This document shows positions 25,440-39,816 of a stretch of DNA of 64,000 nt, piece after piece. Each line of letters opens with the position of its first letter. The stretch's first letter is position 1. Source of the DNA: Escherichia coli (GTDB taxonomy: Bacteria; Pseudomonadota; Gammaproteobacteria; Enterobacterales; Enterobacteriaceae). The notes under the pieces are model-generated. The model saw only the letters and a list, made by a program, of their open reading frames with translations. It made no database searches and was not told the DNA's origin. The position numbers and the translations under genes are program-made. The stretch is taken from NCBI RefSeq assembly GCF_003334785.1, contig NZ_QOWV01000011.1, one strand, 5' to 3'.

Positions 25440-26669
25440 TTATGGTGCAGGATGGTTGTTGTTTTTAAATGATTGTTCTTTATTGGTATTTGTTGTCATG
25501 GGATGACAGGGTGTCAGAATATGTAGGTGGAGGATTTGGTGGAAAGGATGTGCAGTGGCATGTAACAGAGACATGCCTCTGCGCCTGAGAAGTGCCACAA
25601 TATGGACGAGCAATACAAGCCATGAATACAGACGACGCTGGCGGGGTATCTGACGAGCTGTATTGTGCAGATTGCTCCTGAGCTGGATGATACCCACTGT
25701 CTCCTGTTGTCTTTCCAGACGAATTTTTTCTTCAAGCTGATGGATTTTCTCCAGAATCGTTTCCCGGTTTGCAGCCTGCTCTTCAGACTCGCATGATGGC
25801 ACTGGCACTGGCACTGGCACTGGCACTGGCACTGGCGCGGTTGTAGGTTCTATTGGCCTCTGGGCTTCTTTCAGTAAACTCAGATGCTCAGGCGTAAAAT
25901 CAATCAGTGCTTGCAGGGAAGACCAGCCATATTTTTTACCCAACTGAGATGCTTTAAAGGCAATACCCTGGTATTGAAATGAAAATCCACTCATTTTACC
26001 CGTAGTGGCGATATTGGGTTTGCAGGTCACTCCTTCCTGTTCCAGTAAGCGAACAAAGGTTAGTAAATCGGGATGGTGTGTTAATGCATTGTCGAGCAGG
26101 GCCTGCAACAGTGACTTAGGGCAGGGAGCTGCTGTGCGTTCTGCCATCATCAGTTCATTACGGGAAGGCTTCCTTTTATCCTGGCGGCTACTGCCGGTTA
26201 CACCCGTAGTTTCGGTGAGGCCGTGTACTCTCTCCAGCTCACTGATAATCCGTGTGCCGATAAGATTTTCATTTTTCCCCAGGTACAGTTTTCCACCGAC
26301 CATGTTAATACGACTTGCAATGATATGAATATGCTGCCCATCCGGATCATCGTGCATGATATAGCAGCGAAGATGGGTGTCAGTGAAGCCCATTCGGGCC
26401 ATATAATCGTCAGCGAATGCTGCCCACTGTCTGTTTGACAGTTTCTCACCCTTTGGCAGGCGAAGTGAATTATGCCAGACAGGTTTGGCGACATCGGGAC
26501 GCAGCAGTCGGGTGCCTTCAAATTCACTTATAAGCTCAGCAGCAGTGCTACCCGTCATGTTGCCACCGATGACATAAGGCGTGATTTTGTGGTGAGAACC
26601 TGACTTCAGGCTATAAATAACCACACCTGTGAATTGTTTACCCCTTTTTATTTTCTGCATGCCTTTCAT
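25440..26669 (-). CDS. Mobilisation relaxase (MobA/MbeA-like)
   Basis: 409 aa; histidine-triad-like relaxase motif HDDPDGQHIHIIASR; ATGA start/stop overlap with upstream mobC-like gene. Confidence 0.7.
   Translation of the reverse strand: MKGMQKIKRGKQFTGVVIYSLKSGSHHKITPYVIGGNMTGSTAAELISEFEGTRLLRPDVAKPVWHNSLRLPKGEKLSNRQWAAFADDYMARMGFTDTHLRCYIMHDDPDGQHIHIIASRINMVGGKLYLGKNENLIGTRIISELERVHGLTETTGVTGSSRQDKRKPSRNELMMAERTAAPCPKSLLQALLDNALTHHPDLLTFVRLLEQEGVTCKPNIATTGKMSGFSFQYQGIAFKASQLGKKYGWSSLQALIDFTPEHLSLLKEAQRPIEPTTAPVPVPVPVPVPVPSCESEEQAANRETILEKIHQLEEKIRLERQQETVGIIQLRSNLHNTARQIPRQRRLYSWLVLLVHIVALLRRRGMSLLHATAHPFHQILHLHILTPCHPMTTNTNKEQSFKNNNHPAP
25798..25836. repeat. Hexanucleotide tandem repeat (ggcact) x6.5 inside relaxase gene
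   Basis: Direct read; encodes (Pro-Val)n linker PVPVPVPVPVPVP on minus strand. Confidence 0.9.
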
Positions 26670-27073
26670 GGGTCTGACTCCAGAAATGTTGAGGGAATAA
26701 GGTGATCCCTGAGAGTTTTGATTTGTCTGCGCAGGGCGAAGAGTTCTGTACGGGTCAGTTCGCTGTCAGGGCTTTTGCTGTCGAGATGACTCAACAGGTA
26801 GTTTAAATCCTGTGAAAGGCTGCCAAGTTTTATCCATGCTTCACGATTGATTTCTGGCAGAACCGGCGGGAGTTTATTCAGGGAAGCCATCCTGAGCCAT
26901 TCTCCTTTTTTATACTGACCTCTTTTACTGTCGAGAATAATTAATTCTTCTTCATTTAATCTGACACTGATGCAGTGATGTCGTATTTCATTCTCAGGAA
27001 ATTTGTCAGTATGGAATTTACCGCGTTTTGATACTCTGGTTATATCATCATCATTACTCATGTCACTGTTCAT
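26666..27073 (-). CDS. MobC/MbeC-like relaxosome accessory protein
   Basis: 135 aa; position immediately upstream of and overlapping relaxase; family assignment from composition and context, weaker than relaxase call. Confidence 0.55.
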   Translation of the reverse strand: MNSDMSNDDDITRVSKRGKFHTDKFPENEIRHHCISVRLNEEELIILDSKRGQYKKGEWLRMASLNKLPPVLPEINREAWIKLGSLSQDLNYLLSHLDSKSPDSELTRTELFALRRQIKTLRDHLIPSTFLESDP

Positions 27074-27274
27074 AGTTATCCTTTTATTTCATGTTTATTA
27101 CTACAGATAACCGATGAAATGAATAAGTCAAGTTGTTACGGGATAAATAATTTAATTATCTGGATTAAAAAAGGTATACCATTTGACAAATAGTATACCC
27201 ACGAGGACATATCAGATTAATGGTCATTAAATGAATCCTTGCAGACTAAGAAAAGGGTTGTTTACTCCAGAGTT

Positions 27275-28228
27275 TTAGAGTCTTTTTCGTACAGATGAAC
27301 GGGGGATCTCTGGCTTCATTTCTTTTAACAGGTCTTTTTTCTCTCTTGCTGCGATATAAGAAAAAATCTTATCGGAGTCAGAACGCTGTCTGAGTATATC
27401 GTCGTCCATTCGGATACCATTTCGAATGAACCATTTCACACTTTCTATGCCGGTGTAGATACCAATATGTTTATCATGATAACAATTATAAAACTGAACA
27501 TGACTGATATCGGTATATTTTTTCAGTGAGGTAAAGAAGTACTTCATGTTTTTGACATATAATGCGAAGGAACAGTGTTCAGCGATAAGGATATTACGCC
27601 CTTTTTCATGAAGCAAAGCAATTAGAGGCAAAGCCTCAGTTGAAACATGTTTAAATAATACTGGCGTGCTGTCTATTCTATCAACATGGCGTTTGAGGGC
27701 ATTAATACTGAAATCATATATCCACCACTCGTTGTCAGTCGGAAGATCCAGCACCGCTTTGCCACCATAATCTCTGTGGTTTATGTCACACCCTTTATTT
27801 ACCCAGTAATCAAAGACATCATGATCGAGGAGGTCATAAAGAAGCGTTTGTCCTTCGTTATCTGTGCTGTGGATATCAATGCCCGCGTTTATGAGGAGTT
27901 CCGCACAATCTATGGCGTAGCGCTGCCAGTGAAGACAGGACTGGCCTTTATTATTTTTGTGGTGAACGTTAATACCTGACTTTATCAATAGCCTCACTGC
28001 ACGTGGGCTTTTTCTGCTAAACAGGGCATTATTACCATAACAATCTGTATGGTTCAGCGCTATGCCTGCTTCAATCATGGCTTTTAAAGCCCCGATACTG
28101 TCGCAACCGAAAAGGGCGTTTTCACCGTGTTCATTAAGTGTGTTAATGTCAATGCCTGCAGCAATGCAATTCTGGACGTCTTTTTTAGTTTTGCTGTCAA
28201 ATAAATTATCTTCTGTATAGTTACTCAT
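27275..28228 (-). CDS. Ankyrin-repeat protein
   Basis: 317 aa; several approx 33-aa ankyrin-like repeats (..G.NALF...LI.SGI.VNH.D..G.T.L..). Confidence 0.65.
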   Translation of the reverse strand: MSNYTEDNLFDSKTKKDVQNCIAAGIDINTLNEHGENALFGCDSIGALKAMIEAGIALNHTDCYGNNALFSRKSPRAVRLLIKSGINVHHKNNKGQSCLHWQRYAIDCAELLINAGIDIHSTDNEGQTLLYDLLDHDVFDYWVNKGCDINHRDYGGKAVLDLPTDNEWWIYDFSINALKRHVDRIDSTPVLFKHVSTEALPLIALLHEKGRNILIAEHCSFALYVKNMKYFFTSLKKYTDISHVQFYNCYHDKHIGIYTGIESVKWFIRNGIRMDDDILRQRSDSDKIFSYIAAREKKDLLKEMKPEIPRSSVRKRL

Positions 28229-29264: not shown

Positions 29265-29537
29265 TCATAAGAGATGTATCAATCTTGCGAGACTCTCACG
29301 GATTTTATCGCCGTCATAAATAGCAATCTCTTCAATATTGTTACCAATGAAAGTTTCAGCTGCCTGGATGGCTATCAGTTCAGACATACCAACGTTATCA
29401 GCCAGCTGGCGTGCTGCAATGACCTTGCTTTCAAGAGTTAGGATGACCGGCCTGTAGCCTGCGCGTTTGATTTTGATACAGTGTGAAATCAATTTCTCCA
29501 TAGGTGCGGTGGTCACTTGGAATGCAGTCGTACCCAC
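29265..29537 (-). CDS. Hypothetical protein, possibly gene remnant
   Basis: 90 aa ORF; flanking 29540-29770 has coding-like composition without intact frame. Confidence 0.3.
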   Translation of the reverse strand: MGTTAFQVTTAPMEKLISHCIKIKRAGYRPVILTLESKVIAARQLADNVGMSELIAIQAAETFIGNNIEEIAIYDGDKIRESLARLIHLL

Positions 29538-30376
29538 CTGAAAGGCCCCTTCACGGTCAATGTGTGGATCATTAGCATTGGCCCTGCGACTACTGATTTT
29601 AACATCTAGGGAAACGTAGCTGATGTTTGGCTTCGATAAGATTCTGTAGCACCGCCTCAGTGGGGTTGTCAGAACATTCCGCTGCCGCCTTAAGAATATC
29701 GCTTACTAGAGATGAAACTGGTTGATTGTAATCCCGGTCGACCGTTACTCTATGTTTATCCGGATAATTTTGGCGTACACATTAAGTGAAGAAAACTTCA
29801 AAGTGATTTGAAACAGATGTTGTATTCACTGGCTCATTTACATTAACTTGAGTGTTGTTCAGCACATGTTGAAACGCAGCTGTAAGGAAGATGATACAGC
29901 CAAGATGTATCCTTCATTATGGGGATTGGCGCGATGACCACCACGGCTTAGCCCGATTGATTATTTGGAAATTGATTAGAATGCATAATCTGGGCTGAGC
30001 TCACTTAAAGTCTCTAATGTTTGACTTGGAGATTTGGGGGGCAGTGGCTTTCAGTTTTGTTAACTCTAACATCTGGTTTACGTTCCTTTTGGAACAAGAA
30101 GCAGAGGTCTGCTAAGTAATGGTTGTACTGCTTGTGATAGGTATGACTGCATGTTCAGCGAGCAAGAATGGCTTAAAAGTTCTGTTACTGAGCACCCCAT
30201 GAAGTTAGAACGATGTCATAACGTGCACGTAACCGTTGAACTGTTCTCTTACAGATAATCTCTACATAGCTATTATTGCTTAGGCGGTAGCTATGTAGAT
30301 GGTTTTTGTAATATTATATTAAAAGTTCATACAGCGACTATAGCATCATTGCGAAAAATATCAGGAGGTGAGTTTA

Positions 30377-32482
30377 ATGTTACGAAAAAGCAAACTTACA
30401 GAGATATATAAAAGGTTTGGTTTTACTGAAGAAAATACAGGTAACGAAAGTATTGCTGTATATTCTATTAAAACAGGGCACTACCATAACGCGGACATAC
30501 TTCCACTAAATAATGAGGTTAATGTAAATCAAACCTTTGAAGAATATAGGCAGTTAGGTTATGCATGTCAAATTAAAAAATATCAGTCTTATGAAGAAGC
30601 ACATAAGGAATTATTTAATGGCTTCTTTAGCGTCGATTCAACTAAAGAAAGGTTGATTAAAGATTATAATACTTTCACAGATTCAATTGTAAAAATTCAC
30701 TCACCTACTGCAACTTATTCCTACATAAATTCAAAATATTACTTAAATGGTGTTATTGGCGAAGCTAATGTTGTTACGGAAATATTAGAGAGAATACAAC
30801 ATAGGCGTCCAATTCTGTTTTTGATTGAGGCTGCAGCCGGTTTTGGAAAGACTTGCACGGCGTATGAATTATTGAGGGAGATTATAGTTAACAATATAGG
30901 GAAAATACCATTATTTTCAGAACTATCAAGGAATAGGCAAGCAAAAATATTCAGGTATGTACTATTAGATGAAATTGATAGAAGTTTTCCTTTGTTAAGC
31001 TCAGCCTTAGTAAGGAATGAAATAAGAGCAGGAAATGTACCAGTTATACTTGACGGGTTTGATGAACTATTGCATGAAAGTACAAACGGAATTGAAAATA
31101 ATTATGAAAAAACAGAGCCAATGCTGGAAACAATAAGTGAGCTTCTAACTGATAGTGCAAAAGTGGTTTTGACAACTCGAAGAACAGCTATATTTGACGG
31201 AGATGAATTCCATCAGTGGATAGCATCACATCAAGAAGATTTTGATGTGATAAGAATAAGAATTCATGAACCACAAATTGAAGACTGGCTTCCAGGTCAA
31301 CGTTTAGATGAAATTTCATCGACAGGATTTCCTCTTAACAAATTATCAAACCCTGTACTGCTATCATTTCTAAGATGCATCGACGACACCGACTTTAATA
31401 AAGTTATAAGCGACCCAACAACTATAGTGAGGAAGTATTTTGATTCAATGCTTGAGCGAGAAAGAAAAAGACAAGATTTATTAATGTCTATTGAAGATCA
31501 ATATACTATACTAAAAATAATAGCTGACGACATGGTCGAGGGTAACTACACATCTGAGTCTAGAGAGTATATATCGTTAGTCATAACTGAAAAGAATCAA
31601 CAACTCTTGGAGGCTACAAGAAAGCTTTATACTGTAGATGAAAGACCAACTACTGACGAATTAGTTAATAAATTAGCATCGCATGCTCTATTAGATCGGT
31701 CAGGCTCAGAAAACCAAGGTATTGGATTTGTTAATGAATTTGTTCTTGGTAATTTTGTTTCTGAAAATATTATTAATGATAAGTCAAATGAATGGATTGG
31801 TGATAAACGTTTTATAGAACCAGCAGTGCAATCTTATATGCCGAGGATCGATGATGAAAAAGAATTACTTTGGCATAGCTTAGAGTTTGCTTTATATTTT
31901 ATGTCAGGTAATGATAAAATCCTTTATAGTCATTTGCTTATAGGAAAAGTTCCATTAGATTTAAAAAATGATAGTGTTGAGCAATTGTCTATATCAAAAC
32001 TTTCTTTAGGCGATATAAATATAATACATGATACTATCTTTGTTGATTGTTCGTTTTTTAGCAGCATATTTACCTGTGGTAATTATAAAAACGTTACATT
32101 CGTGAACTGTTCTTTTATAGATTGTAGTTTTAACGAATTAAGTGGTAGGGAAGATATTTATTTTTTGGGATGTGAATGTGACAATGATGCTATTAATAAA
32201 AAATCTGTCGAGATAAACAGTGAAAATGATCACGATATTACAGATTGTGATATTTACATCTTAGAGAAGTTCTGTCCCAGAGGGAGTGTTAGCTATCATA
32301 AGCATCGGCCTATAAAAGGCTTATGTTCTAACAACAATCAATTTCAGTTAAGTGAAATACTCCATTCTTTAGATAAATTGAGGAAAGACGGTCTTTTACT
32401 TACGCCAGACAAGCGTTCGTTCCTTGAACTTAACATGGCAAGAATATCAGAGATTAAAGCAATTCTTGGGAGGAATTTCTGA
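30377..32482 (+). CDS. NACHT/STAND-type P-loop NTPase with C-terminal pentapeptide repeats
   Basis: Start at ATG 30377 with aggagg RBS; Walker A AAAGFGKT; NACHT-style Walker B VILDGFDEL; C-terminal run FVDCSF-FSSIF-TCGNY-KNVTF-VNCSF-IDCSF. Confidence 0.7.
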   Translation: MLRKSKLTEIYKRFGFTEENTGNESIAVYSIKTGHYHNADILPLNNEVNVNQTFEEYRQLGYACQIKKYQSYEEAHKELFNGFFSVDSTKERLIKDYNTFTDSIVKIHSPTATYSYINSKYYLNGVIGEANVVTEILERIQHRRPILFLIEAAAGFGKTCTAYELLREIIVNNIGKIPLFSELSRNRQAKIFRYVLLDEIDRSFPLLSSALVRNEIRAGNVPVILDGFDELLHESTNGIENNYEKTEPMLETISELLTDSAKVVLTTRRTAIFDGDEFHQWIASHQEDFDVIRIRIHEPQIEDWLPGQRLDEISSTGFPLNKLSNPVLLSFLRCIDDTDFNKVISDPTTIVRKYFDSMLERERKRQDLLMSIEDQYTILKIIADDMVEGNYTSESREYISLVITEKNQQLLEATRKLYTVDERPTTDELVNKLASHALLDRSGSENQGIGFVNEFVLGNFVSENIINDKSNEWIGDKRFIEPAVQSYMPRIDDEKELLWHSLEFALYFMSGNDKILYSHLLIGKVPLDLKNDSVEQLSISKLSLGDINIIHDTIFVDCSFFSSIFTCGNYKNVTFVNCSFIDCSFNELSGREDIYFLGCECDNDAINKKSVEINSENDHDITDCDIYILEKFCPRGSVSYHKHRPIKGLCSNNNQFQLSEILHSLDKLRKDGLLLTPDKRSFLELNMARISEIKAILGRNF

Positions 32483-33387
32483 TGTATAACGGGAATGAAT
32501 TGCGAATTATTCAAAGTTTGCAAAAAGATATAGAAGATGAACTTAATCGTATTGGATTACTTTATCGTTTTTTTTCGAGGACAAAATCAGAAAGCTCAAT
32601 AATTAAGAAATATGAAAAAGAGCCTAATAAATACTCAGAGGATGGTAAAAAAATTCAAGACTTATTTGGGGTTAGGATAATATTATATTTTCCTGATGAT
32701 TTATTTATTGCTCAAAAAACACTGGAGAAATTATTCGAAATTGAATCTAAAACCGTAGACGAAACCACGGCTAATCTCTTTGCGGCAACTCGATGCAATT
32801 ACGTCTTTAAGTTACCAGAAGTATTATCAAATGATAGTGTCTTATTAAAGAAATATTCTTATATTGATACTACTTTTGAAGTCCAATTTAGAACTATTTT
32901 ATCTGAAGGATGGCATGAAGTTGAGCATGATCTACGCTATAAGTGCAAAGAGGATTGGGTTGAGCATAATGACCTTAGTCGCGCGCTGAATGGAATTTAC
33001 GCCTCTTTGGAAACATCTGATTGGGGAATAATGAAGTTATTTGAGGATTTAGCATATAGAAATTATAAGTCAAGCGCATGGTCCGCTATGCTAAGAAATA
33101 AATTAAGATTGAGAATGGACGATAAGCTTGATGAAAAGATAATTTCAATAATTAATGAGAAAGAGCTTGGTAAAAAGTTTTATAGAATTGACAGAGATCG
33201 TTTGTTATCGTTAATGTTAGATTATAATATTGATATACCAATTAATCTTAATAATATAATTTACCTTTGTAATTATTTTTTCATAAAATCTACGGAGCTT
33301 CAGGATATAGCCCCTGCTTTAATAATGAAAAAGCTTACAGATGCTGATGAAAAATTCAATAAAAATACTATTTTAGCATCTAAATAA
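32482..33387 (+). CDS. RelA/SpoT-domain nucleotidyltransferase (alarmone-synthetase / toxSAS-like)
   Basis: Start overlaps upstream stop (TGATG); motifs FSRTKSESSIIKKYEK, DLFGVRIILYFPDD and EVQFRTILSEGWHEVEHD correspond to the RelA/SpoT synthetase fold (G/RxKS..S, D..G.RII, ExQIRT). Confidence 0.65.
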   Translation: MYNGNELRIIQSLQKDIEDELNRIGLLYRFFSRTKSESSIIKKYEKEPNKYSEDGKKIQDLFGVRIILYFPDDLFIAQKTLEKLFEIESKTVDETTANLFAATRCNYVFKLPEVLSNDSVLLKKYSYIDTTFEVQFRTILSEGWHEVEHDLRYKCKEDWVEHNDLSRALNGIYASLETSDWGIMKLFEDLAYRNYKSSAWSAMLRNKLRLRMDDKLDEKIISIINEKELGKKFYRIDRDRLLSLMLDYNIDIPINLNNIIYLCNYFFIKSTELQDIAPALIMKKLTDADEKFNKNTILASK

Positions 33388-33405
33388 TAACTATCTCCGG
33401 CTATT

Positions 33406-33433
33406 AAGTAGGCCTTGTATTTTAGGCCTACTT
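33406..33433. terminator. Hairpin downstream of the NTPase-RelA/SpoT pair
   Basis: Stem aagtaggcc/ggcctactt with 9-nt loop; A-run on plus side, so may serve either strand. Confidence 0.4.
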
Positions 33434-33766
33434 AAAAAGTTTCATTATGTGAAGTGATGATGATAGCAAATCTGCTATCTTTATGGTTGGATGCGAGAAA
33501 ATATTTTTATCCCGACACAACAACTGGTAATGATAGAAAATTTAAACCCAAAAATGCTACAGTAGCCTCAGCTCACAAACGGAGTATAAAGTGGCGGTTA
33601 CTCTTTAGTGGGAATACTGTAGATAGTTGATAAACTGGGCTGGATTTTCTTTTCTAACCGAAGGGAAGAAAAGCAAGGGGAACCCAAAGAAACAAGCGCA
33701 GCGGCTTCGTAGGGTTAGCCCTTGCTTCTTTTATAATTGGCATTATTCATTCAAGAACAATAGGAT

Positions 33767-34439: not shown

Positions 34440-35336
34440 CTATGACTGGCTGTTTTCAGTAAGAGTCTTATCATCCAAAGAATTTATTCTAGAAATTCTT
34501 TTTAACTCATTAAGATAATCAACCTCGTTTTCTAAGAACCAATGAAGAACTTTAGAGTTGCCAAGTAATTTATTAATATATGACTGGATTATAACGAATT
34601 TCAACATATCTGAACCATACTCGGTTTGAAGTTTTTTCGTTTCTTCCGAAGTTGTTGCCATTTCTTGTTCCAGACGAAGTATGGTTTTTTTTATGTCCTT
34701 TTTATAGGGAGTGTTTTTCCCTTTATTTACTATCATCGATGACGGTGTTGCATCCAAGATGCTCATTGCAAATTTTTTACTATAATTATCAAAATTAATC
34801 ATTGTACCGACTGCTTCAATTTGACGAATTGGCTTCATTTTCCTCAAAACGTCAAATGTAGCCTTAGGTATAGGTTTATCAGAAAGTTTCGCAATTACAC
34901 TTGGATCTATGCCGTTCATCACATTAGCTTTATCTTTTATGGCATCAACAGATATGCCCAAAGCAGCACTAAGTTTTTCAATTGATACTTTTGCCAGAGA
35001 CTTAATTATCATTCTATGTTCTTCAACTACATTTATATGATTCACTTGTTTGTTAGGAGTGAAAGCATCATCTATGCTCGAAAGTATACATGGAGCTTTT
35101 TCTATATCTAAGTCTTTTAAAGCCTCAACCCTTAAATGGCCATCAAGTATCTTAGTGACATCTTTATCTTTGTCATAGAATACTATTATTGGTTCAATAA
35201 TACCCAAGCTTTCGATAGAGGTAACTATTTGATGATATTTATGGCTTCGCTTTACGTTTTCTAATAATTCCTTAGATGGAATTAACTTATTAGTTTCCAG
35301 GTAAATAAAATTTTTGCCAAAACGTATCTGAATCAT
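34440..35336 (-). CDS. ParB/Srx-fold (ParB-like nuclease domain) protein
   Basis: 298 aa; N-terminal ParB-like pattern ...IEPIIVFYDKDKDVTKILDGHLRVEALKDLDIEKAPCIL. Confidence 0.55.
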   Translation of the reverse strand: MIQIRFGKNFIYLETNKLIPSKELLENVKRSHKYHQIVTSIESLGIIEPIIVFYDKDKDVTKILDGHLRVEALKDLDIEKAPCILSSIDDAFTPNKQVNHINVVEEHRMIIKSLAKVSIEKLSAALGISVDAIKDKANVMNGIDPSVIAKLSDKPIPKATFDVLRKMKPIRQIEAVGTMINFDNYSKKFAMSILDATPSSMIVNKGKNTPYKKDIKKTILRLEQEMATTSEETKKLQTEYGSDMLKFVIIQSYINKLLGNSKVLHWFLENEVDYLNELKRISRINSLDDKTLTENSQS

Positions 35337-36229
35337 TTTGATACCTCTTTGTTTACTGGGTTTAATATCTGAGATGGTAGTTCTGAAAGATTCTCTTGTT
35401 CAAGTATATTTTGAAAGCTTTTATTCATCATTATGATGTTAAAAATCTCATTTATTATTAGTAGATTGGTTTTTATAAATTTCGAGTTGTTATAAACAGA
35501 TTTATGTTCAGCGATACTATTTTCATAAAGCTCAATCAACTCCTCTGCAGTCATCCTTTTTGATGGTTTGTGATAATAAAATCCGGCTGCTTTTGCACCT
35601 TTATTCCCAACTGTTCTTTGATTTAGAATGTATTTTATCTTTATAATGTCCCGACTTTTTATTAATTTTTTATCATATGCTTCGGTAAGAATATCTTGTG
35701 CTTCCTCAGTTTCACATCTTGCAAATTGCACTGCGAGATACAGAGGCAAATTACCCCGTTCGACTGCTGAGAGAAGTTTATGCTCTCCCTTATCAAGAAG
35801 CATATTAATACTGCTCACCCAGTTCGATGAATATCCAGTAATCTCACTTATTTCGGAGTCTGAAAGTCCTCTGATTTTCATGTCTTTAATCACCTGTAAT
35901 AACTCATTAGAACGTGGTCTTCTCCTTGCAATGTTTTCAACTAAACTCATAACGTAAGCATCTTCTTCTGATACATCTCTTATAATTGCTGGAATAATAG
36001 TTTCACCTAATGCAACAAGAGCCTCTATTCTCCCTTGACCACAAATTAAAGCATATTTGAAATCGTCTTCATCAATAGCTCTTACGCTTATAGGCTTGCT
36101 TAATCCTCTTTTTTTTATGCTTTCCTTTATTTCTTCATGCACTACCTTATTTCTTGTTCGTGGGTTAAGAAATTTTATTTTTGCAATCTCAATTTGAATT
36201 ATTGGGAATTCATTTTTTTCAGGCAGCAT
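35333..36229 (-). CDS. ParB/Srx-fold (ParB-like) protein
   Basis: 298 aa; ...KPISVRAIDEDDFKYALICGQGRIEALVALGETIIPAIIRDVSEEDAYVMSLVENIARR resembles ParB N-terminal domain; 4-nt overlap with downstream gene. Confidence 0.6.
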   Translation of the reverse strand: MLPEKNEFPIIQIEIAKIKFLNPRTRNKVVHEEIKESIKKRGLSKPISVRAIDEDDFKYALICGQGRIEALVALGETIIPAIIRDVSEEDAYVMSLVENIARRRPRSNELLQVIKDMKIRGLSDSEISEITGYSSNWVSSINMLLDKGEHKLLSAVERGNLPLYLAVQFARCETEEAQDILTEAYDKKLIKSRDIIKIKYILNQRTVGNKGAKAAGFYYHKPSKRMTAEELIELYENSIAEHKSVYNNSKFIKTNLLIINEIFNIIMMNKSFQNILEQENLSELPSQILNPVNKEVSK

Positions 36230-37775
36230 ATAGTTCCCTCACTTTCATGCGAGTAATAATTTGTAGAAATTTATCAAGATTATCAAATCTATAGAGATCT
36301 AACCGAATGTTGTTTGTTTCCATCATACACATTTTACTATATTCGTTTTCAATCTTTGGTATGATATAAAAATCAAGAGGTGAAATATTTTGTGAATTCA
36401 TTCGTATAACAATTGTTATGTCTGCTTTCTGTGAGTTATCAAACCGGACTTTCCATCTAAGTTTACCTGATTTCATATGTATGCATTTAGTAACAAGGAC
36501 GGAAATTAAAAACTCATCATTGATGTAAAGCATTGGGTAATATTTATACTCGTCTATATGACAGTTACTTTTTAATATTTCGCCCTTAAAATCCTCAATT
36601 ATCTCTGAGTAAAATGATCTTAGTGCTTCATTTATTTGGAGATAGCTGTAATCATGTTCTGGCTTATAACCAATCAAAGTATATGCTCTTAAAAGACCAC
36701 CAAATCGGGTTCTATAAACAGAAGATGAAGGGCCTGTATCATCTTCATCAATGATAAAGCCTGATAGTTTTCCATTAGATTCTAATTTTTCTTTTAGCTT
36801 TTCTAATAGATCTTCATTAGTCAAATGAATGGATCGGAGCTGAATTATTTCTTGAGCTTTATTATATTTTTTCTTTGAAATAATTGGTTTATATGCCTTG
36901 TCACATCTAATCCATTCATGTTTGGGGTTTTTTACAAGCTTACTTTTTAGTTTAGATGAGGTTTTGTTATATATGTTGTTTCCAATATATTTTTCATTTG
37001 TCAAAATTTGATGTATTTTTGCACGAGTCCATGATGTTCCATTTTCTGCAGGTATGCTCTGTTCATTTAATCTCTCAGCAATAATGAATTCTGGGACGTT
37101 ACTATCTATAAAGAGATCATAGATTCTATTTACAATTTTTATTTCATTTTTTGGTCCCGGAATTAATATTACCCTATCTGTTTGAATACTCTTTCTTTTG
37201 CGGAAATTCAATATTTCTTTAGCTATGCCATTTTCGTCTACTAAAAGACGTCTCAGCCCATAACCAGCCATACCGCCTTGATGATAACCAAGCTTTATTA
37301 AATTTACTTGCCCTATAAATACCTTTTCAGATAGATTCCTGCTGTGATATGCAGCACTTGATCTTTTTATATTCAGTATAACAGAGGACTCTAAAGGGAA
37401 ATCTTTAGTGGGTATAGGTTCGGAACAATATATAAGATCTACACCATTTCTTTCAAATAGAAAGGAATAATATGCAGCTTCATCACTATTTTGAAAACGA
37501 CCAAAACGGCTCACATCATAAAATAATACAGCCTGTATATCTATTTTCTTTTGTTCTACATCGCTAAGTAACTGCTGCAAAGAATGCCTGCCTACGATAC
37601 TGACTCCGCTCTTACCTGCATCATCGTAGGTATAAGCGATTTCCATATTGTTCTTTTCAGCATAATCTTTGATATATTCAGACTGATTATGTAAAGAATA
37701 TTGCTGATGGTCGGTAGACATCCTCAAGTACTGTGCGACCCTAACTCTATGATTTTTTTCATTTCCGCTAGCCAT
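36219..37775 (-). CDS. Large serine recombinase (resolvase + recombinase domains)
   Basis: N-terminal resolvase motif YLRMSTDHQQYSLHNQ with catalytic-Ser context and DVSRFGRF; downstream recombinase-domain pattern (SWTRAKIHQILTNEKYIGN); start at ATG 37775. Confidence 0.7.
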   Translation of the reverse strand: MASGNEKNHRVRVAQYLRMSTDHQQYSLHNQSEYIKDYAEKNNMEIAYTYDDAGKSGVSIVGRHSLQQLLSDVEQKKIDIQAVLFYDVSRFGRFQNSDEAAYYSFLFERNGVDLIYCSEPIPTKDFPLESSVILNIKRSSAAYHSRNLSEKVFIGQVNLIKLGYHQGGMAGYGLRRLLVDENGIAKEILNFRKRKSIQTDRVILIPGPKNEIKIVNRIYDLFIDSNVPEFIIAERLNEQSIPAENGTSWTRAKIHQILTNEKYIGNNIYNKTSSKLKSKLVKNPKHEWIRCDKAYKPIISKKKYNKAQEIIQLRSIHLTNEDLLEKLKEKLESNGKLSGFIIDEDDTGPSSSVYRTRFGGLLRAYTLIGYKPEHDYSYLQINEALRSFYSEIIEDFKGEILKSNCHIDEYKYYPMLYINDEFLISVLVTKCIHMKSGKLRWKVRFDNSQKADITIVIRMNSQNISPLDFYIIPKIENEYSKMCMMETNNIRLDLYRFDNLDKFLQIITRMKVRELYAA

Positions 37776-38057
37776 GCACAAAACCTCATGGATGATTCAA
37801 TACAATGTAGAGGATAAAATTGATCAAATTTTAACCGAATTCAACTGTTTTATCATTGATTAGAGCGAATTTGGTAGTTCTTCGAGGTGTATGATAATCG
37901 AGAAGAGATGTGAATTATTTAGCTGATATGACCGACAGCTTTCGTTATGTGGCCTCAAGGTACCCATTTGTAAATGGCTATGCTTAGTCCACATAGGTTA
38001 ATGGTGTGATCATTAATTCTTCAAATAAATCAAGATAGTTAACCCATCATGGAAGAG

Positions 38058-39287
38058 TTATGCGGCAATAACTTTGTATTTTTGAGACGAAACATAGTCA
38101 CTCCACCATTGCATGAGAACCACACGTTCTGTGAGATACTCTGCACGATTGTAGGCTGCAATTATTTCATCTTTTTTCGAGTGGGCAAGGGCGGCTTCTA
38201 AGACATCAGTTCTAAACTTGCCACACTCCTCAGCCGCCGTTCTAGCGATTGATCGCATACCATGAGCTACAAGCTCACCTCCGAAGCCCATACGGATTAT
38301 AGCCGCATTAGCTGTTTGTTCATGCATGTGATTGAGTGGAGCTTTGATACTGGGAAAAACCCACTCTCTATGCCCGCTGATGGCTTTCATTGAATCCAAG
38401 ACTCGCAAAGATTCTTTGCTCAGTGGAACTTTGTGAGGCTTCTTCATTTTCATAAACTCCGCCGGGATGTTCCACATGCTGGTTTCTATATCAATATCTG
38501 ACCATCTTGTGCGAACAGCTTCACCAGGGCGAACCCATGTGAGAAGTTGCCACTCAATCAGTAGCCTTGTTTCTAAACGGATAGAAGCATTGTTTAGAGC
38601 AACCAGGAAGCGGGGGAGTTCGGAAGGGGGTAATGCTGGCATATTCTGTTTTTTTGGCTTGCTGAACCGTTGCCCCAGGTTGTCAGCCGGATTGAATTCT
38701 ATGAGTTCTTCTGTTGCTGCATAGCGGAAAATTTCATTCAGGCGGGATATGACGCGGCGAAGTGTTTCAAGGACACCTCGTTTTTCTATGGGGTCTAAAT
38801 GCTGTTTAAGCATTTTAGGGCGAATCTCCTTAATGGGGGTATCACCCAACGTTGGAAAGATATTTCTCTCTAGGCTTCGCCAGATGTCGTTAGCATGATC
38901 CTGGGAGATGCCTGACGTTTTGACTTTCTCATCAAGCCACTTCTTGGCTACTGCTTGAAATGTATGTTCCGTTGCATCCTTAAGGGCATTGGCTTTGTGG
39001 GTGTTATGAACTTGTGGGTCTATACCATTTGCAAGCAACGACAAGTACTCATCACGTAAAGCTCGTGCCTTCGCAAGTGTAAGGTGAGGATAGGTTCCTA
39101 AGCTCACCTTAGTTCGCTTTTTGGTCACAGGCACTGCATATCTGAAATACCAATTTTTCTTTCCTCCCTTCGCTAAGGGGGCGATTCGCAGGAGCAAACC
39201 ATCGCCGTCAAAAAGGTTAACCTCTTTCTCGGCAGGTTTGGTGCTTTTGATTTCAGTGTCAGTGAGCTTCTTAGCGATTTTTGCCAT
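38058..39287 (-). CDS. P4-type tyrosine integrase (IntA-like) next to ssrA
   Basis: Start at MAKIAKKLTDTEIKS (ATG 39287) in ORF 38058-39431; C-terminal catalytic region with HGMRSIARTAA and terminal tyrosine context; directly 5' of tmRNA 3' end. Confidence 0.85.
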   Translation of the reverse strand: MAKIAKKLTDTEIKSTKPAEKEVNLFDGDGLLLRIAPLAKGGKKNWYFRYAVPVTKKRTKVSLGTYPHLTLAKARALRDEYLSLLANGIDPQVHNTHKANALKDATEHTFQAVAKKWLDEKVKTSGISQDHANDIWRSLERNIFPTLGDTPIKEIRPKMLKQHLDPIEKRGVLETLRRVISRLNEIFRYAATEELIEFNPADNLGQRFSKPKKQNMPALPPSELPRFLVALNNASIRLETRLLIEWQLLTWVRPGEAVRTRWSDIDIETSMWNIPAEFMKMKKPHKVPLSKESLRVLDSMKAISGHREWVFPSIKAPLNHMHEQTANAAIIRMGFGGELVAHGMRSIARTAAEECGKFRTDVLEAALAHSKKDEIIAAYNRAEYLTERVVLMQWWSDYVSSQKYKVIAA

Positions 39288-39453
39288 GTTTGGGACCCTC
39301 ATGTTTTGGACCCTTTGTGTTGGGTCCCAAAAAGGGTGCCATAACGAGTAGATTCTAGCAATTCTCGGTAGACTACTATAGACGTAAAAAAGCCCGCAAG
39401 GCTGGTTCCATGCGGGCTTGATAGACTTCACTGAACTTCAATATATCAAAAAT

Positions 39454-39816
39454 TGGTGGAGCTGGCGGGAGTTGAACCCGCGTCCGAAATTCCTACATCC
39501 TCGGTACTACATGCTTAGTCAGTCTTTACATTCGCTTGCCAGCTGCGGACGGACACGCCACTAACAAACTAGCCTGATTAAGTTTTAACGCTTCAACCCC
39601 AGGCAGGGCTTCCACGCGATCTCTTTTGGGTTTGACCTCTCTTGATCCCCGTCCTAAGAGCGGAGGCTAGGGAGAGAGGGCTCTAAGCAGGTTATTAAGC
39701 TGCTAAAGCGTAGTTTTCGTCGTTTGCGACTATTTTTTGCGGCTTTTTACGAGGCCAACCGCCCCTCGGCATGCACCTTGGGTTTCGCAAATCCCGTCGA
39801 ATCCAGAATCAGCCCC
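39454..39816 (-). ncRNA. ssrA: tmRNA (SsrA)
   Basis: 363 nt; minus-strand sense begins ggggctgattctggattcgacggg and ends ...gggttcaactcccgccagctccacca; tag-encoding region present. Confidence 0.95.

Follow-up and report, generated by a model that had tools for sequence, protein, structure and literature searches.

Bacterial proteins built around a NACHT module defend against phage (Kibby et al., bioRxiv 10.1101/2022.07.19.500537), and CapRel, an immune effector of the RelA/SpoT homologue (RSH) fold, is switched on by a phage protein (PMC9712102). Here we describe a pair of overlapping genes in Escherichia coli in which these two kinds of protein meet: gene A encodes an NLR-like STAND/NACHT NTPase, the predicted sensor and switch, and gene B encodes a RelA/SpoT-fold pyrophosphotransferase, the predicted effector. 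The pair lies in a 64,000-nucleotide stretch of contig NZ_QOWV01000011.1 (RefSeq assembly GCF_003334785.1), which we call the window and to which all positions refer. The sensor family and the effector fold are already known; what is undescribed is an apparently obligate two-gene arrangement in which the N-terminal domain of the NACHT protein is, by prediction, dead.

Gene A shares its NACHT module and its three-domain layout with the bacterial NACHT (bNACHT) proteins of Kibby et al., whose Table S1 places the architecture NA-iREase2+NACHT+Pentapeptide in clade 15, with members from Vibrio cholerae and Paenibacillus daejeonensis (10.1101/2022.07.19.500537). The clade 15 genes cloned in that study, bNACHT09, 34 and 69, all have other architectures, and in the available tables no NA-iREase2+NACHT+Pentapeptide member bears a bNACHT designation. 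A P. daejeonensis locus in our own scan (L026) carries a RelA/SpoT partner next to its NACHT gene. The tested bNACHT proteins are mostly single genes with fused effectors (bNACHT25 has an N-terminal restriction endonuclease (REase) effector), whereas here the N-terminal domain is predicted to be dead and the enzyme sits on a separate, coupled gene. Alarmone synthetases are named there among NACHT-fused effector domains, and a table entry records a Tox-RelA+NACHT fusion from the foraminiferan Reticulomyxa, in a different clade and the only such fusion known; the pairing of separate NACHT and RelA/SpoT genes goes without mention in the text of the paper.

An initial annotation of the locus, made from the sequence alone, had held the split two-gene architecture not to be a described system. 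That claim needs qualification: the two-gene form is absent from PADLOC and from the papers we found, but Kibby et al. already list both the NACHT architecture and alarmone synthetases as NACHT-fused effectors. PADLOC-DB v2.0.0 holds no model for the pair, gene A has no match in it, and the pair matches no described system there, as the initial annotation had supposed. Named systems sought in PADLOC, NCBIfam and PHROGs gave no candidate that we retained: there was a weak AbiGI match (E 0.0045) and a HalA match confined to the pentapeptide stretch. Our literature search found no paper describing the two-gene form or either RefSeq accession and, for NACHT or STAND proteins together with RSH enzymes or alarmones, nothing beyond Kibby et al. 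and surveys from the Aravind group.

Among STAND systems more widely, the RelA domain is a rare effector in NTP-dependent conflict systems (Kaur et al. 2020, PMC7159879). Like these systems and Avs/AVAST, the pair combines a STAND NTPase and a variable sensor with an effector of a kind that can be swapped, and Avs4 is near gene A in fold. Effectors in those systems are fused, or are recruited by shared effector-associated domains (EADs), whereas genes A and B share none (PMC7159879 for the former).

On the effector side, CapRel(SJ46) resembles gene B as a RelA/SpoT-fold pyrophosphokinase effector, with a Foldseek match at E 1e-4, but it senses through a fused pseudo-zinc-finger antitoxin domain, works without an NTPase and targets tRNA (PMC9712102); gene B is nearer RelQ/RelP, and its family profile misses CapRel by sequence. 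Toxic small alarmone synthetases (toxSAS: FaRel, FaRel2, PhRel and PhRel2; PMC7229694, PMC11782079) are likewise small RelA/SpoT enzymes encoded in overlapping two-gene operons, and their ATP-donor motif set (RxKxxxSxxxK, DxxGxR and ExQ) is identical in gene B. They differ in their partner, which is a small antitoxin or hydrolase rather than a 700-residue STAND NTPase, and in the acceptor-stacking Tyr, whose aligned residue in gene B is not conserved. The best sequence and fold matches of gene B are RelQ (SAS1) and RelP (SAS2), yet it is only about 17-22% identical to them, has GYxSxH replaced, carries an extra C-terminal helical domain of ~100 residues and has an NLR-like gene as its neighbour on mobile DNA.

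Genes A and B form a conserved unit

Gene A (30377..32482, + strand; RefSeq WP_000944877.1) encodes 701 amino acids and gene B (32482..33387, + strand; RefSeq WP_000282312.1) encodes 301. The gene A stop codon and the gene B start codon overlap as TGATG at 32480-32484, with GGGAGG just upstream, and this coupling of two + strand open reading frames had been read correctly in the initial annotation. Its length for gene A, 702 residues, and its start coordinate for the element, 30258, needed correction: the gene A ATG at 30377 sits 8 nt past AGGAGG (30363-30368) and agrees with RefSeq, and 30258 falls within the upstream hairpin.

We scanned GTDB representatives, one genome per species, by gene B alignment and examined the best 80 loci among 187 species matches. 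In eight of these the contig was too short to judge; of the other 72, 59 have a NACHT gene immediately before the gene B homologue, in the same orientation. Hosts of the pair span Gamma- and Betaproteobacteria, Campylobacterota, Bacteroidota, Firmicutes (Paenibacillus, Lachnospiraceae), Myxococcota and Cyanobacteria. The two reading frames overlap in 32 of 51 full-length pairs, by 4, 1, 8 or 11 nt, and 49 of the 51 either overlap or are no more than 5 nt apart, the remaining gaps being 17 nt and 77 nt. Across homologues, pairwise identity among gene A proteins correlates with that among gene B proteins (r = 0.89), which indicates that the two proteins co-diverge.

When NACHT homologues were looked up instead, a RelA_SpoT gene stood immediately downstream of all six (60, 50, 45-46, 31, 30 and 30% identity; from Vibrio, Pseudomonas, Idiomarina and metagenomes), and their flanks were unrelated. 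Cassettes elsewhere adjoin AbiTii and a prophage lysis cassette, Mrr_N, or transposase, integrase and methylase genes; a sample of 20 flanking genes from 12 other genomes comprised both mobile-element and housekeeping genes. No fused (Rosetta-stone) form occurs among the top 120 to 150 matches of either protein. These comparisons strongly support the conclusion that the two genes are one conserved, apparently obligate unit that has spread horizontally. The proposal that they work as a single sensor-effector unit, made before any comparison of genomes, is strongly supported by the abutting arrangement across phyla, the unrelated flanks and the co-divergence.

Gene A is an NLR-like NTPase

RefSeq names the gene A product NACHT domain-containing. 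The initial annotation was right in calling NACHT in gene A and RelA/SpoT in gene B, and its pentapeptide call corresponds to a short pentapeptide-like block; it had overlooked a helical domain at the C-terminus of gene B and, in gene A, the NA-iREase2 domain. The latter, in full NACHT-associated inactive restriction endonuclease 2, is the strongest Pfam match in gene A (PF22723, E 3.2e-33; residues ~6-123, 30392..30745, + strand). Across 51 homologues position 40 of this domain is always D or E, positions 63-65 are A/S, C/A and K/T/Q, and no (D/E)xK is conserved, which agrees with the Pfam label "inactive". We therefore predict from the alignment that the N-terminal domain, which has a restriction-endonuclease-like fold, is catalytically inactive. 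It may serve as an adaptor.

The NACHT NTPase module covers residues ~125-470 (30749..31786, + strand), as judged from conserved motifs and Foldseek. Both nucleotide-binding motifs that had been pointed out in it are present: the Walker A sequence AAAGFGKT (residues 152-159; 30830-30853, + strand) is a GxxGxGK[ST] P-loop, and the Walker B sequence VILDGFDEL (residues 223-231; 31043-31069, + strand) follows the hhhhDGhDE pattern. Their cores are invariant in 45 close homologues and also kept in a wider set of 51, at G155, G157, K158 and T159 in Walker A (at least 85% conserved in the wider set) and at D226, G227, F228, D229 and E230 in Walker B. Also conserved among homologues are a TTRRT motif, in which R268 is a putative sensor-1 residue, and His436 (in ASHALLDR, in a helical region), which would be equivalent to the winged-helix His of NLRC4, H443.

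The Pfam NACHT match itself is weak (PF05729, i-Evalue 0.0082, 16.4 bits). The AlphaFold2 (AF2) model of gene A has a mean predicted local distance difference test score (pLDDT) of 84 and an NLR-like fold, and the top solved Foldseek matches are NOD2, NLRP2, Avs4, NLRP3, NLRC4 and NAIP5 (E 4e-8 to 2e-6). The NACHT assignment is thus better founded on the conservation of the Walker motifs, TTRRT and the His, together with the NLR fold matches, than on the profile score.

The C-terminal part of gene A begins with a short pentapeptide-like beta-helix (residues ~530-600; 31964..32176, + strand), for which the Pfam match is again weak (Pentapeptide_4, E 0.0074, over residues 557-590 of a 704-residue form of the protein). 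AF2 places about 10 short regular strands at residues 533-597, a short block as opposed to a long repeat array. Conservation in gene A is lowest at residues 501-650, that is, in the beta-helix and the linker after it, and we predict that the beta-helix region is the ligand-sensing part. It is followed by a small conserved alpha/beta domain (residues ~620-701; 32234..32479, + strand), defined by alignment and AF2, with the motif LEKFxPxG..HKHRPIK. The family is compact: nearly all of its 361 clusters at 50% identity are about 700 residues long.

Gene B keeps its donor site and has a divergent acceptor loop

The RelA_SpoT synthetase domain of gene B (residues 32-157; 32575..32952, + strand) matches PF04607 over the full model length at E 7.8e-15, so that of the three Pfam families expected in the pair this one is clear and the other two are weak. 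The AF2 model (pLDDT 88, predicted template modelling score 0.82) has a RelQ/RelP-like fold. Its best solved Foldseek matches are RelQ/RelP small alarmone synthetases (E 5e-8), with template modelling scores of 0.6-0.7, normalised to target, for 6fgk, 6ex0, 5dec and 2be3; the CapRel match cited above is weaker. Sequence and family profile reach RelQ/RelP-type chains alone in the PDB at E <= 10, with no solved toxSAS reached by the profile at that threshold, and gene B accordingly falls outside the validated toxic subfamilies (FaRel, FaRel2, PhRel, PhRel2, CapRel and Tas1) by family profile against the PDB. A phage family, phrog_9640 (profile of 365 residues), matches gene B at residues 31-190 (PHROGs, E 3.4e-14), which indicates that related RelA/SpoT-fold proteins are encoded by phages.

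We compared residues across 72 gene B homologues, 59 paired with a NACHT gene and 13 standing alone. The RelA/SpoT motifs noted at the outset are present as DLFGVRII (D60, G63, R65) and EVQFRT (E133, Q135, R137), and the Asp and Glu singled out there are invariant. R33, K35, S39, K43, D60, R65, E133, Q135 and R137 are identical in 72/72, and G63 is replaced by Ala in 8/72. The donor-site residues map onto R64, K66, S70, K74, D90, R95, E145 and Q147 of FaRel2 (residues described in PMC11782079). Because all donor and catalytic residues are kept in every homologue, gene B looks, from its sequence, like an active enzyme.

The acceptor loop (G-loop) is divergent, with GYxSxH replaced by F100...R104-x-N106. 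R104 is kept in 57/59 paired homologues, and F100 and N106 are conserved too. Position 107, which aligns to the acceptor-stacking Tyr in a loop where the alignment is ambiguous, is Tyr in E. coli and Leu in 37/59 paired homologues. Model confidence is low here, with pLDDT below 50 at residues 96-100. The overall isoelectric point (pI) of gene B is about 6. Reading the acceptor from motifs and charge was tried and dropped, given the ambiguous G-loop alignment and this pI.

Beyond the synthetase fold, gene B has an extra C-terminal helical domain (residues ~197-301; 33070..33384, + strand), delimited by AF2 and by the extent of the Foldseek alignments: solved small alarmone synthetases align to gene B over only about 185-205 columns. 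In the predicted structure this domain appears to be unmatched in solved small alarmone synthetases.

Gene B occurs and persists without gene A

The 13 of 72 judgeable loci in which a gene B homologue has no NACHT gene come from Blautia, Oscillospiraceae, other Clostridia and a Prevotella (L060, L065, L066, L068-L074, L078, L080 and L087 in our scan). These standalone homologues are 38-43% identical to gene B and keep the extra C-terminal helical domain. They cluster in tight genus-level groups, a pattern of vertical inheritance, and may be a housekeeping enzyme family.

Within E. coli, gene A has been broken independently several times, mostly with gene B intact (L096, L098 and L099; H21 and H49-H51). 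A chicken lineage has a frameshift in gene A and strains H3, TOE17 and ML35 have 5' deletions of it, in each case beside an intact gene B, and in strain RM10410 gene A is disrupted by the insertion sequences (IS) IS2 and ISVsa5. One IS3 insertion at the gene A/gene B junction damages both genes, and one IS2 lies upstream of an intact pair. The broken-NACHT strains and the standalone homologues together suggest that gene B is tolerated without its partner, and this tolerance favours a NACHT protein that activates gene B over one that acts as the antitoxin of a constitutively toxic enzyme.

The pair lies on a mobile island

The cassette stretch is matched in 76 of 5426 complete E. coli genomes (1.4%), at >=99% identity and chromosomal every time. 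At 32-34% GC the gene pair stands out from a backbone of about 50%, in line with its description as AT-rich. The integrase-bearing island suggested by the initial annotation is also real: it is inserted at ssrA, with the integrase at 38058..39431 and the tmRNA at 39454..39816 of the window. Strain FDAARGOS_1248 carries the pair on an ssrA-inserted island with a relaxase, two ParB-like genes, a serine recombinase and an integrase.

Hairpins had been reported on both sides of the pair, and both fold far better than shuffled sequence. The upstream one is an imperfect inverted repeat with 24-nt arms (30249..30311, + strand; RNA fold -22 kcal/mol, z-score -5.9); it overlaps a promoter-like site at 30248-30276 and could be an operator or an upstream terminator. 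The downstream one has a perfect 12-bp stem (33404..33435, + strand; z-score -5.5) and is terminator-like, yet no T-run follows it.

Other genes of the island were recorded alongside. About 840 bp upstream of gene A, at 29265..29537 (- strand), a type II restriction enzyme survives as a remnant (PADLOC REase_II, E 1.5e-41), which RefSeq annotates as DUF4928 pseudogene fragments. Between the pair and the ssrA integrase, three overlapping low-GC genes at 34440..37781 (- strand) encode two ParB/Spo0J-like proteins of 298 residues each and a 520-residue protein of the serine recombinase family; they match no PADLOC system and may together form a module for the island's maintenance or for defence. 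At 25440..28228 (- strand) lie genes for a 409-residue MobA-like relaxase with a PV-repeat stretch and for a 317-residue ankyrin-repeat protein with a weak PADLOC PDC-M72A match (E 3e-8), which suggest that the island is an integrative mobilisable element. ARAGORN calls a tRNA-Met (anticodon CAT) at 13229..13304, inside a low-GC region, and this gene may mark an older island boundary; RefSeq places a tRNA-Ile in the equivalent upstream region of a related strain.

A model for the pair and its alternatives

We favour, with moderate confidence, the view that the pair is a two-gene NLR-like defence cassette in which a NACHT sensor activates a separately encoded RelA/SpoT effector. From the observations above we infer that the pair acts in defence and that gene B is activated, not freed from inhibition; trigger, contact surface and product are likewise inferred. 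The case for a defence role is circumstantial and draws on the low GC content, the mobile island, the presence in few complete E. coli genomes, the spread across phyla, the frequent decay and the REase, AbiTii and Mrr_N neighbours.

In the model that we propose, the variable C-terminal beta-helix region of gene A would sense a phage- or infection-derived cue, and binding of the cue would lead to nucleotide-dependent oligomerisation of the NACHT module, as in other NLRs. The usual N-terminal effector position would be filled by the dead REase-like domain, and the activated assembly would recruit gene B or switch it on in trans. Gene B would then transfer pyrophosphate from ATP to an acceptor, and growth arrest or abortive infection would follow, either by an alarmone burst ((pp)pGpp or (pp)pApp) or by pyrophosphorylation of tRNA 3' ends. 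Our leading guess for the acceptor is a nucleotide, with an alarmone as product, because gene B resembles RelP/RelQ most closely in fold and is not a basic protein; the acceptor may instead be the tRNA 3' end, which FaRel2 and CapRel modify, or something new. Only tentatively do we go on to propose that an NLR-like receptor controls a RelA/SpoT enzyme in trans and that the immune output is either an alarmone or a novel pyrophosphorylated compound formed by way of the remodelled acceptor loop. The dead REase domain is possibly the non-homotypic interface between receptor and enzyme. A shared EAD-like adaptor on both proteins was considered as well and dropped, hhalign finding none.

Several observations weigh against this model. 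The nearest relatives of gene B are non-toxic housekeeping synthetases and not known toxSAS, and its pI of about 6 does not point to a basic surface for tRNA binding such as toxSAS have. Its standalone homologues adjoin housekeeping genes, as the pair itself often does in the 20-gene, 12-genome sample. The sole PADLOC match of the pair is a weak one to PDC-S33 on gene B (E 8.4e-5, residues 8-84). Comparison of the two family alignments by hhalign revealed no domain common to gene A and gene B (probability 0.1, no aligned region). The pattern of decay in E. coli, finally, may mean no more than that gene A offers mutation a larger target, or that gene B is silenced by polar effects.

The same affinities of gene B would fit a role outside defence, in which the STAND NTPase would be a signal-transduction switch that adjusts the alarmone output of a RelP/RelQ-like enzyme to endogenous or environmental stress. 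The closest sequences and folds of gene B are those of housekeeping small alarmone synthetases, its standalone relatives adjoin housekeeping genes in Clostridia and Prevotella, and so do many of the pairs. We nevertheless regard this as unlikely, since the pair is patchily distributed, low in GC, carried on a mobile island, spread across phyla with unrelated flanks and often pseudogenised, and since the C-terminal region is the least conserved of gene A. The gene A clade of Kibby et al. also contains bNACHT proteins that were cloned for phage testing. Of much the same low likelihood is a toxin-antitoxin logic, by which gene B would be constitutively toxic in the manner of toxSAS and the NACHT protein would be a sensor-antitoxin that releases it on a trigger, as in CapRel. 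An overlapping bicistron with the neutraliser first does match toxSAS toxin-antitoxin operons (PMC7229694), and gene B does have its Foldseek match to CapRel. This logic sits poorly, however, with the E. coli lineages that keep an intact gene B beside a frameshifted, 5'-deleted or IS-disrupted gene A, with standalone homologues that are stably inherited without a conserved partner, and with a family profile that reaches no solved toxSAS; polar loss of gene B expression could excuse the broken-NACHT strains.

That the N-terminal REase-like domain of gene A is the true effector, a DNase to which gene B would be an accessory or regulator, we consider very improbable. Other bacterial NACHT proteins do use N-terminal REase effectors, bNACHT25 being one example, but Pfam defines the domain found here as inactive, the 51 homologues lack a conserved (D/E)xK, and gene B retains every donor-site catalytic residue.

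Implications

In the characterised bacterial NLR-like defence proteins, to our knowledge, the effector is part of the same polypeptide. Here, in a widespread family, the effector position is predicted to be dead, and the RelA/SpoT protein, made from its own co-translated gene, is the sole enzyme. This raises the questions of how a STAND oligomer activates a partner enzyme without a shared adaptor domain and of what product a RelP/RelQ-like enzyme yields during infection when its acceptor loop is altered. The pair is a 3-kb insert, so both questions are directly testable in E. coli, and the standalone relatives in gut Clostridia offer a natural comparison. The arrangement would give RelA/SpoT-fold effectors a third mode of control, besides small antitoxins and the fused CapRel sensor. 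If our model is true, stringent-response chemistry would be linked directly to NLR-type immunity, and bacteria would offer a simple, widespread model for how an NLR can switch on a separate enzyme by way of a non-homotypic interface.

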